DNA from: a virus
Lineage: Duplodnaviria; Heunggongvirae; Uroviricota; Caudoviricetes
Length of the DNA: 39,157 bases
Reading direction: 5' to 3' (one strand)
Virus record (IMG/VR): IMGVR_UViG_2917408641_000005
The position numbers were made by a program. Positions 1 to 6,000 of this stretch are shown here, in pieces (position 1 is the first letter of the stretch; every line of letters starts with the position of its first letter).

Positions 1-3000
1 TTATTTTTGATTTATCGCATATCCTTCTAAGAATTTTTGCGATGCTGCAATATCCGGAGTAAAGATGCGATCCTGCTCGACAAATGGCACGACTTTTCTG
101 TAGGCGGTAAACATCGCTTTTGTTGATTTACCTAATGCCAGTTGTGGATCGGCTTGCAACCGCAAATCGATTGCCTGCGCGGAATGCATCAATTCAATGC
201 CATAAATAATGTTCAAATTATCAACCACCTGTTTCAGTCTTCTGGCTGCATGGTCGTTATTGGCACCGGTATCTTCAATGCCTCCGGCAACCGGTTGAAT
301 ATCGAAAGAAACAGGATTGGCGAGATCAACATTTTCTGCATGCAGCGCGACAAAAGGAATATGCAGCGAACCGAAGCCGTGACCTTTATTACTAGGTGCC
401 GACAGGAAGCGCGTTAAACCCGTAAAGTGATCATCTTCCAGGTGCAGCGAGCGACGCATACTGTTATGCGAAACATGCACTAACGCCACGGTCAGACGCT
501 GGGTGGCAAGCGCAACAGGTAACGATTCGAAGTTTGCCGTCGGGAAAATCCCGCCGCTGATTGCGCCATCTTTAACAAAATATTGCGCGACCTGGCTGGA
601 ATCCTGGTACGCCTTATCAGCATTCAGCACAGTTGCCGGGTTATCGTCAGAACTGTTGATCTGCACGGTAATGATATCTTCTGCGTCATGTAGCGCACGT
701 ACCGACTCAGAAAGGGTATACACCGTTGTTCTGAACGATAACGGATCCTGCAATGCGCGTTTGTCATCCTTATGCCATAAATAAGAACCGATTAACGCAT
801 CGCGGATCTCTTTCGCGGAATCAGCCAACTGCGGGAAAGGACGCACGTCGATCGACTGCGGCAGTACCGGCGCGACGTTACCATTCAACGCTTCCAGACT
901 CATAGCGAAAACCACCGGGCTGACATTCAGCAACTGGCGTGCCGACCGTACCGCTTCAATCGCATACGCCGTGCCAACGCTGTTGTTCGACAAAATCGCC
1001 AGCATATCTTTACCCTGCGGCACCAGTGGTTTAAGCCCCACTTTCGCCAGCGCATCGCCACCACTCATTTCCACGCCATTAACCCGCGCTTTCCATTCCC
1101 CCATCATCACCAGGCCAACGTGTGATGCGAGCATAATATCTGCTGCGCCAATGCTTCCACGCGCCGGATGTATTGATTCACTTGAAGTACGAAAAAAACC
1201 GGGAGGACATTGGATTATTCGGGATTTGGCGGGATTAGATTTAGTGGGGCTTGCAAGCCTGTAGGACAGATTTTAGCCGTTACATCTTGAAACGCGAAAG
1301 ATTGTTGGAAACAGCTTTTGATTCATTAAAGACACGAAAAGCAATTACTTCACGCATCATTTCAAGTACAGCTTCAAAAATGCTTCAAAAACGGTAACAA
1401 CCAGGCTTTCAGCAAGTGATGTGTGTCAAAAACAATCATCACTGTTTGGGTATCTTACATATGTAATTACCTGGAGTGAAGTTTATGTCTTAGCTATTAC
1501 CTGGTTGTTATACAGCTTTCTTTACATCGTTTTCTCTTACAGGGAAATTATGTTCTTTGCCTTCATACTGAGACAAAATCTCTCTTACTTTTTCCGGTGG
1601 TAATGCCTGAAGAGTTTGCAGGGTTTTCTGTTGCTCCACAGTAATCCCTAATGCCTCTAATGCCTTATCTTTACTGACAATTGTAGGCATAAGTCCTTTA
1701 ATCCCTGCTACACGAATGATCTCCACAGCTGCGGCCTGCTCATCTGGTGTTAAGAAGCTCATTGCATAAATCAGCCTCTCATCAACTGTATGGGCGATTG
1801 ATGTATGCACTGGTTTATCAGAAAGTGAGGCTCCTTTAATGGCCCTGCGTGTTTCTTCTGGCAGACTGTTGATGTGATACTCATAAGCGACACCTTTCCC
1901 ACCGTGACGCTGACGTTTTACCCAATCTTCCGCCACAGCTTTCCTGGTAATGTTAGTCGCCAACTTTGGTACACCAGGCATCCCTTCCAGCTCTTTCGCA
2001 TTAAACCATTCTTTGATTTCAAAAGATATCATTTAAAATCCTAGTGATTTCAATAGAGACAAAATAAATTCATATAAAAATCATACTGTTATATGAAATC
2101 ATGATAAATCCATTCAAATCCCTATTGATTTGAAAGTGATTCCACACTACATTGCACGATATGCCGTGAGCTACTTTATAGCGTAGCTCACGGGGGAATC
2201 TGAAAGGATTACATGAAATGCATATGAATAAAAGAACTAACCGCCAAGATTGGCACAGAGCTGACATCGTTGCAGAGCTACGAAAACGCAATATGTCACT
2301 AGCTGAATTGGGAAGATCTAATCATCTTTCGTCTTCAACATTAAAAAATGCTTTGGATAAGAGATATCCGAAAGCGGAGAAAATCATTGCAGATGCACTG
2401 GGAATGACACCGCAAGATATTTGGCCGTCTCGATACTAGGTGCGCTATGAAAGAATGGTATACAGCAAAAGAGTTGCTCGGTTTGGCAGGTTTACCAAAG
2501 CAAGCCACTAACATTACACGTAAGGCACAAAGAGAAGGCTGGGAGTTTAGGCAGGTTGCAGGGACTAAAGGTGTATCATTTGAATTCAATATCAAATCAT
2601 TCCCTGTCGCATTACGTGCTGAAATTCTGTTGCAACAAGGGAGAATTGAAACAAGTCAGGGGTATTTTGAAATCGCCCGCCCCACGCTGGAAGCCCATGA
2701 TTATGATCGTGAGGCACTGTGGAGCAAATGGGATAACGCCAGCGATTCCCAGCGCAGACTTGCTGAAAAATGGTTGCCTGCGGTTCAGACTGCAGACGAA
2801 ATGCTGAACTAGGGGATTTCAACAAAAACGGCTTTTGCGACCGTTGCAGGGCATTACCAGGTCAGCGCATCCACTTTGCGGGACAAGTATTACCAGGTAC
2901 AGAAGTTTGCGAAGCCTGACTGGGCGGCTGCGCTTGTTGATGGACGTGGTGCATCCCGTCGCAACGTTCACAAAAGTGAATTTGACGAGGATGCCTGGCA

Positions 3001-6000
3001 GTTTCTGATTGCAGATTATCTGCGACCGGAAAAGCCCGCCTTCCGCAAATGTTATGAGCGTCTGGAACTGGCAGCCCGCGAGCATGGCTGGAGTATTCCC
3101 TCCCGTGCCACGGCCTTTCGCCGGATTCAGCAACTGGACGAGGCAATGGTTGTTGCCTGTCGTGAAGGTGAACATGCACTGATGCATCTGATACCGGCAC
3201 AGCAGCGAACTGTGGAACACCTGGACGCCATGCAGTGGATCAACGGCGACGGTTATCTGCATAACGTCTTTGTACGCTGGTTTAACGGTGATGTGATCCG
3301 TCCGAAAACATGGTTCTGGCAGGATGTGAAAACCCGAAAAATTCTGGGCTGGCGCTGCGATGTGAGCGAGAACATTGATTCAATTCGCCTCTCGTTCATG
3401 GATGTTGTGACTCGCTACGGTATCCCGGAGGATTTTCACATCACCATTGATAACACCCGTGGTGCTGCGAATAAATGGCTGACGGGAGGCGCGCCCAATC
3501 GCTACCGCTTTAAGGTGAAAGAAGACGATCCAAAGGGGGTGTTTTTACTGATGGGTGCGAAAATGCACTGGACAAGCGTTGTTGCCGGTAAAGGCTGGGG
3601 CCAGGCAAAACCTGTTGAACGTGCTTTCGGTGTTGGTGGGCTTGAGGAATACGTTGATAAGCATCCGGCACTGGCTGGCGCATATACGGGGCCAAATCCG
3701 CAGGCAAAACCTGATAACTATGGCGACCGCGCTGTTGATGCAGAGCTGTTTCTGAAAACCCTTGCCGAAGGTGTGGCGATGTTCAATGCCAGAACAGGCC
3801 GTGAAACAGAAATGTGCGGGGGCAAACTCTCGTTTGATGATGTTTTCGAGCGTGAATACGCCAGAACGATTGTGCGTAAGCCAACCGAAGAACAAAAACG
3901 GATGCTGTTACTGCCTGCCGAGGCGGTGAACGTTTCACGCAAAGGCGAGTTTACGCTTAAAGTTGGCGGCTCCCTTAAAGGCGTGAAAAAAGTTGTGGTC
4001 AGGTTTGATCCGCAGCAGCTACACAGCACGGTTTATTGTTACACCCTGGACGGTCGGTTTATCTGTGAAGCGGAATGTCTGGCACCTGTTGCATTTAATG
4101 ATGCTGCGGCAGGCCGTGAATATCGCCGCCGCCAGAAACAACTGAAATCTGCAACTAAAGCAGCCATTAAGGCGCAGAAACAAATGGACGCGCTGGAAGT
4201 TGCTGAACTGCTGCCGCAGATAGCCGAACCAGCAGCACCAGAATCACGAATTGTTGGTATTTTCCGGCCTTCCGGTAATACGGAACGGGTGAAGAATCAG
4301 GAGCGTGATGATGAATACGAAACTGAGCGTGATGAATATCTGAATTATTCGCTGGATATTCTGGAACAGAACAGACGTAAAAAAGCCATTTAATTAACGT
4401 TTAAACAAAATTTAATTACGAGGTTATTCAGATGAATATTTCCGATATTCGCGCAGGACTGCGCACGCTTGTAGAAAATGAAGAAACCACCTTTAAACAA
4501 ATTGCTCTTGAGAGCGGACTTTCTACCGGAACTATCAGTAGTTTTATCAATGATAAGTACAACGGGGATAACGAGCGTGTCTCACAAATGCTGCAACGCT
4601 GGCTGGAAAAATATCATGCAGTGGCAGAACTACCTGAACCGCCCCGCTTTGTGGAAACGCAGACGGTAAAACAAATCTGGACAAGTATGCGTTTTGCCAG
4701 CCTGACTGAAAGTATTGCTGTTGTATGTGGCAATCCTGGTGTGGGCAAAACCGAAGCGGCCCGTGAATATCGCCGCACCAATAACAATGTCTGGATGATC
4801 ACCATTACGCCATCCTGTGCCAGCGTTCTGGAATGTCTTACTGAACTGGCGTTTGAGCTGGGAATGAATGACGCACCACGCCGTAAAGGGCCACTCTCCC
4901 GTGCCCTGCGACGTCGCCTTGAAGGTACACAGGGGCTGGTTATCATCGACGAAGCTGATCATCTTGGTGCCGAAGTTCTGGAAGAACTCCGCCTGTTACA
5001 GGAATCAACCCGCACTGGCCTTGTGCTGATGGGAAATCACCGGGTTTATTCAAATATGACGGGGGGTAACAGAACGGTTGAATTTGCCCGTCTGTTTTCC
5101 CGTATTGCAAAGCGCACTGCAATTAATAAAACCAAAAAAGCCGATGTAAAAGCTATTGCGGATGCCTGGCAGATTAACGGCGAAAATGAACTGGAGTTAT
5201 TACAGCAGATTGCGCAGAAACCAGGTGCGCTTCGCATTCTGAATCATTCACTTCGCCTTGCCGCCATGACGGCTCACGGTAAAGGTGAGCGTGTTAACGA
5301 AGATTATCTGCGTCAGGCTTTCCGTGAATTAGACCTGGACGTTGATATTTCAACGCTGCTGCGTAATTAAGAAGGAGAAGAAATTATGATGGCCCGAAAT
5401 ATAAAAATGGCAACGGATGCGCAGAACTGGTTACAGGCGCGCGGGAGTCATGTAAATGAATCATATCTCGGCGTGGCGCGTCCGATTCTTGAAATCACTT
5501 ACCCACCGGTGGAACTGGTAAAAAGCGCGGTCAGAATTATGGAGCATAAGTCCGGGGTGGCCCGTTCTGTATGGACGGCCCGTCTTAATGGTTGCCAGAT
5601 TATCTGGAGATAACGATGTGTATTAAAGCTGAAAAATATATTGAATGGGTTAAACACTGTCAGTGCCACGGGGTGCCGCTGACGACATATAAATGCCCCG
5701 GATGTGGTGAACAGATTATGACGCAATGCTCACCCGAAAAGGAAATTCGGGATTCCCTGACATGTTGTCCGTGGTGCAGCGCGGTTTTCTTTAAGCAGGT
5801 AAAAGGCGCGAAGGTAAAAGCCAGCGCAGTTATTCAGAATCAATAAGGAGAAACAAAATGGCAAAGGTTATCTTTGAGTTTACATGGCTGGAAAGTAGTG
5901 ACGGTTGCAATGGGCGCAGAGAAGTTCTGGATGCAAAAGCATGTCTTGCAGATATCTCGCCAACGGAAAATACCGGGCCTCATGATTTACTGGCAAATAT

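Follow-up and report, generated by a model that had tools for sequence, protein, structure and literature searches.

A probable natural and recent loss of transposase A function in a Mu/D108-type prophage of Escherichia marmotae HT073016

Introduction

The 39,157-nucleotide stretch of DNA analysed here (IMG/VR record IMGVR_UViG_2917408641_000005; hereafter the window) carries a Mu-like prophage whose transposase gene A contains an in-frame amber codon. The initial annotation, made from the sequence alone, left open whether a host suppressor tRNA restores the full-length protein, whether the prophage is defective, or whether the codon marks a laboratory A(am) phage or a sequencing error. We asked which of these explanations accounts for the interrupted gene.

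Results

Structure and host of the prophage

The window begins in the 3' part of a host HAL/PAL/TAL ammonia-lyase gene (1..1168, minus strand), which is interrupted by the prophage: this segment is 91% identical to an intact E. coli gene of 1671 bp, with the match ending at 1168. The left copy of the target duplication, CCGGA, occupies 1164-1168, and is followed by attL, the left end of the Mu/D108-type prophage (1169..1507, plus strand), which begins TGTATTGATTCAC. By blastn, D108 base 1 corresponds to window position 1169, with 98.5% identity. The left end thus reads TGTATTG... from 1169 and the right end ...GCTTCA; the right junction (locus L016) runs ...GCTTCA-CCGGA-ATTAA, and the E. coli target without insertion reads CGCGCCGGAATTAA. 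With a length of 38.1 kb, TG...CA termini, a 5-bp duplication and insertion into a host gene, the element is organized like Mu and D108, with which it also shares the gene order c-ner-A-B.

The repressor gene c (1508..2032, minus strand; 174 aa), identified by tblastn and by Pfam HTH_Tnp_Mu_1 on the record, is of the D108 type and intact, its product being 98.3% identical to D108 c over the full length without stops. The ner gene (2218..2439, plus strand; 73 aa) and gene B, encoding the transposition ATPase (4432..5370, plus strand; 312 aa), are likewise intact, and their products are 100% identical to those of D108. The overall order is that of a Mu-like transposable prophage of the Muvirus kind: c / ner-A-B-kil...gam...mor...C-lys-head-tail-G segment-gin-com-mom. 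Among the 56 annotated D108 products, 53 of the 55 other than A (c included) align in full length and without stops, while the prophage lacks counterparts of D108 genes 14 and 56; A itself also aligns in full length apart from two lesions, and all products are collinear. The prophage is a mosaic, differing by about 1.5-5% from D108 and Mu, and carries one IS insertion. No tRNA gene was found within the window.

The window is identical to the genome of E. marmotae HT073016 (CP025979.1); the agreement covers window 1-12284 for the draft assembly GCA_000807695.3 and the 8 kb compared for the complete assembly GCA_002900365.1. HT073016, the type strain, was obtained from marmot faeces in 2012 (PMC11546641). 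The proteins encoded in the host flanks are identical to those of E. marmotae, and the flanking DNA reaches no more than 88-91% identity with any one of 5,426 E. coli genomes. In a collection of genome contigs, a 32-mer from the host flank led only to a Citrobacter MAG of 88% identity, and a pattern spanning the amber codon had no match. Since both NCBI assemblies of this strain from the wild match the window exactly, we are unlikely to be dealing with a laboratory phage or an assembly error. The initial annotation's suggestion of a laboratory A(am) phage does not fit the E. marmotae flanks or the match to CP025979.1, and its suggestion of a sequencing error is countered by the same bases in the draft and complete assemblies and by the recording of the 121-aa product from a Logan assembly.

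A derived amber codon interrupts gene A

Translation of gene A (2447-4393, plus strand) gave 648 sense codons, a single internal stop and the terminal TAA at 4391-4393. In agreement with this, the ORF listing shows the gene as two pieces in the same frame, one of 121 aa (2447-2812) and one of 505 aa (2876-4393). As first annotated, the internal stop is an amber TAG at 2810..2812 (plus strand), codon 122, corresponding to Gln122 in D108 and Gln123 in Mu numbering. The single uninterrupted frame of about 662 codons is therefore absent; it is present in 13/13 full-length relatives checked, none of which carries either lesion.

The assignment of the gene to the MuA/D108 A family was borne out by its domains and its near-identity to D108 A. 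Over the two ORF pieces, Pfam detected HTH_Tnp_Mu_1, HTH_Tnp_Mu_2, DDE_2 and Mu-transpos_C in this order, with scores of 121.8, 162.8, 453.4 and 40.3 bits, each exceeding its curated cut-off; Mu and D108 give the same domain set. The four profiles represent I-alpha/I-beta, I-gamma, the DDE core and the II-beta barrel, respectively. The catalytic residues D268, D335 and E391 align to Mu D269, D336 and E392. Protein identity to D108 A is 97% over the full length (662 positions, including a 14-residue gap and the stop). The window protein thus shares domain order and DDE triad with the A proteins of D108 and Mu, the latter represented by PDB 4FCY and 1BCO/1BCM, and has a D108-type N-terminus, but, unlike them, is broken by TAG at codon 122 and lacks MuA residues 514-527.

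The 5' part of the gene (2447..2812, plus strand) comprises 121 sense codons and the amber codon, and encodes subdomain I-alpha and part of I-beta. HTH_Tnp_Mu_1 matches residues 8-121 of this part, equivalent to profile positions 1-113 of 134, and is homologous to the repressor N-terminus (55% identity over 60 aa). This agrees with the earlier expectation that, without suppression, only a 121-aa N-terminal fragment, containing the enhancer/operator-binding part, would be made. According to Pfam and PDB alignments, the remainder (2813..4393, plus strand; 526 codons and TAA, same frame) encodes the rest of I-beta, I-gamma, the DDE core, a damaged II-beta barrel and domain III.

The codon homologous to TAG is CAG in D108, in Mu, in the E. 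coli strains 22KM0354, 2020C08-115 and PSS-15, and in seven IMG/VR contigs and three metagenome contigs; a search for further TAG carriers in IMG/VR (7 loci) and metagenomes (3 loci) yielded CAG only. Around the codon, PSS-15 equals the window at 80 of 81 bases, the sole difference being C/T at 2810, and these 81 bases have no exact match in any E. coli complete genome. Since CAG is found in all relatives examined, including the near-identical PSS-15, comparison of these sequences identifies TAG as a derived C>T change at 2810, in line with the annotation of TAG as one transition from a glutamine codon. We also considered programmed readthrough at codon 122, and rejected it: none of the relatives (phages, prophages, IMG/VR and metagenome sequences) conserves a stop at this position.

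We then examined the sequence downstream of the stop. The only in-frame ATG after TAG with any Shine-Dalgarno-like sequence lies at 3146 and is poorly spaced; a restart there would strip all DNA-binding domains from A. No clear C-rich, G-poor stretch of the kind linked to Rho-dependent polarity was detected past TAG (maximum C/G of 1.53 in 78-nt windows), and G exceeds C overall downstream; polarity of this type is speculation.

A second lesion in the II-beta barrel

The initial annotation described the A frame as continuous except for one TAG. The reading phase is indeed kept, but the description was incomplete, as 42 bp (14 codons) are missing after about position 3979. Mu and D108, with which it had proposed to align the gene, have both the CAG codon and the 42 bp absent from the window. 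In the relatives, two GGCG[C/T]GAAAAA repeats lie 42 bp apart, and the deletion runs exactly between them, leaving a single hybrid repeat, GGCGTGAAAAA, at the junction (3980..3990, plus strand). Every relative compared has the 42 bp, and the HT073016 loci L012 and L015 are the only ones in which the junction sequence was found. Slippage or short-homology recombination between the two 11-bp repeats may have generated the deletion.

The lost 14 residues, MuA 514-527 (AKNVYYNMALMNAG), belong to the II-beta barrel. The core of this segment, MuA 515-527, is occupied in 126/126 homologues of 34-57% identity, with N516 in 117/126, an aromatic residue at position 518 in 126/126 and L523 in 101/126, so the window protein lacks a complete barrel with its G-N-R/V-Y-W/Y...L segment. 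The Mu-transpos_C score drops from 57.7 to 40.3 bits, and the alignments to PDB entries 4FCY and 1BCM show near-identity except for the 14-residue gap. In this domain, Mu itself has 10 residues more than the Pfam profile. The possibility that the deleted residues form a dispensable lineage-specific loop was rejected, since what varies is MuA 507-514; residues 515-527 are found in all 126 homologues. Insertional analysis of MuA found II-beta highly intolerant to insertions and all subdomains needed in vivo, while the loop at 527-528 tolerates insertions (PMC3362531).

The conservation of this segment suggests that the deletion would itself abolish A function. An amber suppressor would probably not restore A function, because the readthrough product would still lack the conserved II-beta segment; this undermines the earlier reading's implication that the gene could be rescued by a suppressor of the supE type.

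Origin and age of the lesions

The C at 2810 is the inner cytosine of an ancestral Dcm site (2809-2813), changed from CCAGG to CTAGG: the ancestral AACCAGGGG became AACTAGGGG in the window, a C>T change at the inner C of CCWGG. Among the 248 nonsense-making single substitutions possible in A, only five belong to this Dcm class. The inner C of CCAGG is a classic 5-methylcytosine deamination hotspot, and the amber codon may have originated by such deamination. Dcm-site (CCWGG) C>T amber hotspots were reportedly first described for lacI; there, too, CCAGG changes to CTAGG at the inner cytosine, turning an in-frame CAG into TAG. In contrast to the lacI hotspots, the prophage in the window shows no general excess of Dcm-site substitutions (1/138 substitutions, p = 0.36). 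A look-up of the E. coli Dcm cluster returned no E. marmotae among the 15 members listed, and a literature search found nothing on Dcm in E. marmotae.

Window-unique substitutions amount to 4.6 per kb in A (6 synonymous, 3 nonsynonymous) and to 4.3 per kb in the rest of the prophage (84 synonymous, 39 nonsynonymous). Because A matches the rest of the prophage in both substitution rate and synonymous:nonsynonymous ratio, we conclude that both lesions in A are recent. Long-term relaxed selection in A was rejected on the same grounds. The A-null allele was found only in HT073016, that is, in one lineage, and both lesions are derived and confined to this strain.

Discussion

The most probable explanation of the interrupted gene, to which we assign a probability of roughly 0.85, is a natural, recent loss-of-function allele of A in an otherwise complete Mu/D108-type prophage of E. 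marmotae HT073016. Two independent spontaneous lesions would have struck A, namely CAG>TAG at Gln122 and the 42-bp in-frame deletion; we infer both the loss of function and the mutational mechanisms. Translation would halt after 121 residues, giving a product with the enhancer/operator-binding I-alpha subdomain but without a complete end-binding or catalytic domain, and reading through the amber codon would still yield an A protein that lacks a segment common to every homologue examined. The prophage would then be unable to transpose, replicate or yield phage, while repressor immunity stays, leaving it immobilized, or 'grounded'. The initial annotation expected immunity to be kept, and the intact c gene agrees with this. 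Immunity rests on c and not on the 121-aa fragment, which would appear only once the early promoter is derepressed.

Three rival explanations spare the prophage or take it out of nature. Suppression of the amber codon, by a supE/glnV-like or other host tRNA or by efficient natural readthrough, would give full-length A and an active prophage. Amber suppressors are generally uncommon among wild isolates. No tRNA gene lies in the window, and a stop retained in no relative examined argues against programmed readthrough. MuA 123-126 tolerates pentapeptide insertions (PMC3362531), so that almost any inserted residue would be acceptable there, but the readthrough protein would still be short of the universally conserved 14-residue II-beta segment, and we regard suppression as very unlikely. 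An error of sequencing or assembly in TAG, and possibly in the deletion too, with an intact true gene behind it, is similarly improbable. The amber codon is a difference of one base, and the two public assemblies share the strain and possibly the laboratory of origin; nevertheless, the draft and complete versions agree, and the 121-aa product also appears in a Logan assembly. Substitutions and exact repeat-bounded 42-bp deletions are atypical of assembly artefacts, and two independent 'errors' in A, with none disrupting the approximately 53 other compared genes, would be unlikely. As for a laboratory A(am) derivative of Mu or D108 in a laboratory host, Mu A amber mutants are classical tools. 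This explanation is effectively refuted by the E. marmotae flanking proteins, the 88-91% identity of the flanking DNA to E. coli, the natural target duplication in a host gene, the mosaic and IS-bearing prophage about 1.5-5% removed from D108/Mu, and the origin of the type strain from marmot faeces in 2012 (PMC11546641).

A different kind of alternative accepts the loss of A and attributes the double hit to positive selection for immobilization, and in addition takes the 121-aa fragment to be a functional, domesticated operator/enhancer-binding protein that hinders transposition of superinfecting D108-type phages or modulates early transcription. Both lesions fall in A, about 5% of the element, with 53 other products of full length and free of stops; the fragment keeps HTH_Tnp_Mu_1, homologous to the repressor N-terminus; and mutants of this kind should be favoured under the 'grounded prophage' hypothesis (PMC6379469). 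Against this, the allele is known from HT073016 only, a single lineage, and the statistics are weak, as a neutral second event would land in A with a chance of about 0.05; the position of the two lesions is thus only suggestive of selection. The fragment ends inside I-beta and may be unstable, its transcription from the repressed early promoter implies its absence in a stable lysogen, and the recent lesions leave no sign of long-term retention. We consider this alternative unlikely, and its strongest form, in which host-level selection for immobilization is combined with a fragment that inhibits incoming D108-type transposition, more unlikely still. If that form were true, the fragment would be an enhancer/operator-binding inhibitor shielding the cell from incoming D108-type phages.

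The natural, recently disabled A allele resembles classical laboratory Mu A amber mutants and Mud derivatives in the type of lesion, a CAG>TAG nonsense change in A. Laboratory Mu A ambers have the phenotype expected here, neither transposing nor replicating while keeping immunity, and conditionally transposition-defective Mud derivatives have been used in suppressor hosts. Unlike them, the allele of HT073016 arose naturally in wild E. marmotae carries an additional in-frame deletion that is not suppressible, and is not known to have a suppressor host. The prophage also resembles grounded or defective prophages with an inactivated integrase, excisionase or transposase, in which the enzyme for productive exit has likewise been lost, with immunity and most genes intact; this element fits the early phase of prophage decay set out in PMC6379469. 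What sets it apart is that the enzyme lost is no site-specific recombinase but a DDE transposase, which drives replication as well. Decay in the HT073016 prophage is minimal, consisting of the two lesions and one IS insertion.

This is an ordinary, recently disabled prophage, with no recoding event, and raises no new biological question. For annotation, the element seems 'intact' to prophage finders, yet, judged from its A gene, it almost certainly cannot transpose or replicate, and gene A in this type strain of E. marmotae is best annotated as a pseudogene that carries two lesions instead of one. The prophage offers a natural example of an amber codon arising at a Dcm site, and of the earliest prophage decay, in which the mobility enzyme is lost while 53 other D108 products remain full length.

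Gene A carries an amber codon and a 42-bp in-frame deletion

In-frame translation of the transposase gene A (2447–4393) gave 648 sense codons and a single internal stop, TAG at codon 122 (2810–2812), with termination at TAA (4391–4393). The ORF listing divides A into a 121-aa ORF (2447–2812) and a 505-aa ORF (2876–4393) without change of phase, in agreement with the initial annotation, which described a continuous frame broken by one TAG. At the DNA level, A showed 97–99% identity to gene A of D108, Mu (from base 189 on) and SfMu, and to Mu-like prophages in 88 of 5,426 complete E. 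coli genomes. Both ORF pieces together carry the complete Pfam set for MuA (HTH_Tnp_Mu_1, HTH_Tnp_Mu_2, DDE_2 and Mu-transpos_C), align near-perfectly with the solved MuA structures 4FCY and 1BCM, and retain the DDE triad. The N-terminal 60 residues are of the D108 type, with 55% identity to the repressor N-terminus. Gene A is uninterrupted in 13 full-length relatives. The product is a MuA homologue in which two features of functional members have failed, namely, the uninterrupted frame and the complete II-beta barrel.

The second lesion was overlooked in the initial annotation, which recorded only the TAG. A is 1947 bp long, compared with 1989 or 1992 bp in its relatives, and is 42 bp shorter than all of them. 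The relatives carry GGCG[C/T]GAAAAA twice, exactly 42 bp apart, while a single hybrid copy is present here (3980–3990). A loss bounded by repeats in this way is characteristic of slippage during replication or of deletion through short homology, and the junction sequence was found only in HT073016 loci. The residues lost correspond to MuA 514–527 (AKNVYYNMALMNAG) in the II-beta beta-barrel.

We considered these 14 residues as a dispensable loop, on the grounds that Mu has 10 residues beyond the Pfam profile in the II-beta domain and that MuA 527–528 tolerates pentapeptide insertions (PMC3362531). This was rejected, as MuA 515–527 was occupied in all 126 homologues of the conservation alignment (34–57% identity, drawn from 1.84 billion searched representatives); the variation is located in MuA 507–514, occupied in only approximately 30%. 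Within the deleted segment, N516 was conserved in 117 of 126, position 518 was aromatic in 126 of 126, and L523 was conserved in 101 of 126. With the deletion, the Pfam score of the II-beta domain fell from 57.7 to 40.3 bits. Elsewhere in II-beta, insertions are reported to be very poorly tolerated, and transposition in vivo to require all MuA subdomains (PMC3362531). Judged from this conservation, the 42-bp deletion is very likely to be inactivating by itself, so that a glutamine-inserting suppressor, proposed earlier as a means of restoring A, would probably not rescue it. That proposal is unsupported, since the suppressed product would still miss the conserved II-beta segment.

Origin of the amber codon

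The codon homologous to the TAG is CAG in D108, Mu, E. coli 22KM0354 and E. coli 2020C08-115, as well as in seven IMG/VR contigs and three metagenome contigs. A conserved recoding signal at codon 122 was rejected, the relatives all having CAG. No exact match to the 81 bases around the TAG was found among complete E. coli genomes. The best match, E. coli PSS-15, differs solely in having C for T at 2810, and has both other local variants of the window (ACT Thr and ACA Thr). The TAG is thus derived, having arisen by a one-step C>T change on a pre-existing haplotype. The ancestral context is AACCAGGGG, in which the base mutated at 2810 is the inner cytosine of the Dcm site CCAGG (a site by sequence, with putative host methylation). 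5-Methylcytosine at Dcm sites deaminates to thymine, giving rise to amber hotspots, as first demonstrated in lacI. Of the 248 possible stop-generating single substitutions in A, only 5 are of the Dcm type, and no general excess of Dcm-site changes was detected in the prophage (1 of 138 substitutions, p = 0.36).

A laboratory A(am) phage and a sequencing error were the alternative sources offered for the TAG. When the 121-aa product was looked up by exact match, it was identified on scaffold KN714347.1 of the draft assembly GCA_000807695.3 and in one Logan assembly, and look-up of the repressor identified the same prophage in CP025979.1 of the complete assembly GCA_002900365.1. The latter belongs to the type strain of Escherichia marmotae, HT073016, which was obtained in 2012 from the faeces of a marmot on the Qinghai-Tibet plateau (PMC11546641). 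Over the 8 kb compared, CP025979.1 and the window were 100% identical, and the draft was identical over 1–12284. As judged from the two assemblies, a sequencing error is unlikely. Past 12284, KN714347.1 diverges from the window (beyond approximately 19838 of the draft locus, approximately 12285 of the window), probably because the draft scaffold has a gap or is misassembled there. Host proteins in the prophage flanks were identical to E. marmotae proteins, and the flank DNA showed only 88–91% identity to any E. coli genome. Given these flanks and the wild source of the strain, a laboratory phage is ruled out.

To estimate the age of the lesions, we counted lineage-specific substitutions, defined as bases shared by four references but not by the window. 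Gene A carried nine (4.6 per kb; six synonymous and three non-synonymous, including the amber), and the other genes 123 (4.3 per kb; 84 synonymous and 39 non-synonymous). A did not differ from the other genes in substitution rate or in synonymous:non-synonymous ratio, and has therefore not undergone long drift as a pseudogene. Measured against the divergence from the sampled relatives, both lesions are recent. Gene 30/F (17301–18617) held 36 of the 123 substitutions outside A (21 synonymous and 15 non-synonymous), far above its neighbours, and was probably brought in by recombination with a relative outside the sample.

The remainder of the prophage is largely intact

The prophage begins at 1169 (TGTATTGATTCAC...). 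With the mom stop as its last codon, the window falls 115 bp short of the right end (...GCTTCA), which is present in CP025979.1; the prophage totals 38,104 bp and is flanked by a 5-bp duplication, CCGGA. It interrupts, and so also inactivates, a host HAL/PAL/TAL ammonia-lyase gene (window 1–1168; 4842–5349 of the right-junction locus). This gene is intact in E. coli. It adjoins a hut-like cluster (formimidoylglutamase, HutD).

Among the other annotated D108 products, 53 of 55 aligned at full length without stops, among them those of c, ner and B and of the genes for head, tail and lysis; the match for U spanned residues 1–173 of 175. The lack of counterparts for D108 genes 14 and 56 is a mosaic difference. 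Besides the lesions in A, the only structural change is an IS256-family insertion (34734–36048, 1,315 bp) within the invertible G segment, where it occupies the 3′ end of U. The insertion has imperfect inverted repeats (GAGCCTGT...), an 8-bp target duplication ACAAAAAC (34726–34733 and 36049–36056) and a 402-aa Transposase_mut ORF (34806–36014), and it alters the last residues of the tail-fibre assembly protein U.

The prophage is a mosaic (regions 5858–6124, 8750–9460 and the right end beyond 39157), with D108-type c, ner and A N-terminus, and a Mu-type right end that lacks D108 gene 56. The gene 7 allele shows only 40% identity to that of D108, and other sequence takes the place of the gene-14 region, a replacement shared with some E. 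coli prophages, in which this region contains a minus-strand DUF2513 gene. The repressor c carries a lineage-specific ATG>ATA change (Met2Ile) at codon 2 (2027–2029), directly after the start codon, and is otherwise full length and 98% identical to D108 c.

Predicted consequences for the prophage

Translation of A from the early promoter would halt after 121 residues, leaving the enhancer/operator-binding subdomain I-alpha and an incomplete I-beta, without an intact end-binding or catalytic domain. Restart is improbable, since the first downstream in-frame ATG preceded by anything resembling a Shine-Dalgarno sequence, at 3146, would give a product devoid of all DNA-binding domains. Since Mu needs A both to integrate and to transpose replicatively, the prophage should neither replicate nor produce phage, while immunity should persist via the intact c. 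The truncation and retained immunity anticipated in the initial annotation are thus plausible, but in a stable lysogen the repressed promoter prevents any contribution of the fragment to that immunity. Killing on derepression might be reduced if the nonsense codon had a polar effect on B and kil, which is speculative given that no clear Rho-loading region was found.

The element is clearly a descendant of a D108/Mu-type phage and behaves like one. Both disabling lesions lie within a gene covering approximately 5% of it, in line with the ‘grounded prophage’ hypothesis, under which selection favours hosts whose prophages are immobilized (PMC6379469), although the statistics from one lineage are weak. 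The lesion type is like that of the classical laboratory Mu A amber mutants, whereas the HT073016 allele is natural in origin. Defective prophages in which the mobility gene has been knocked out are well known, and this one adds a natural case.
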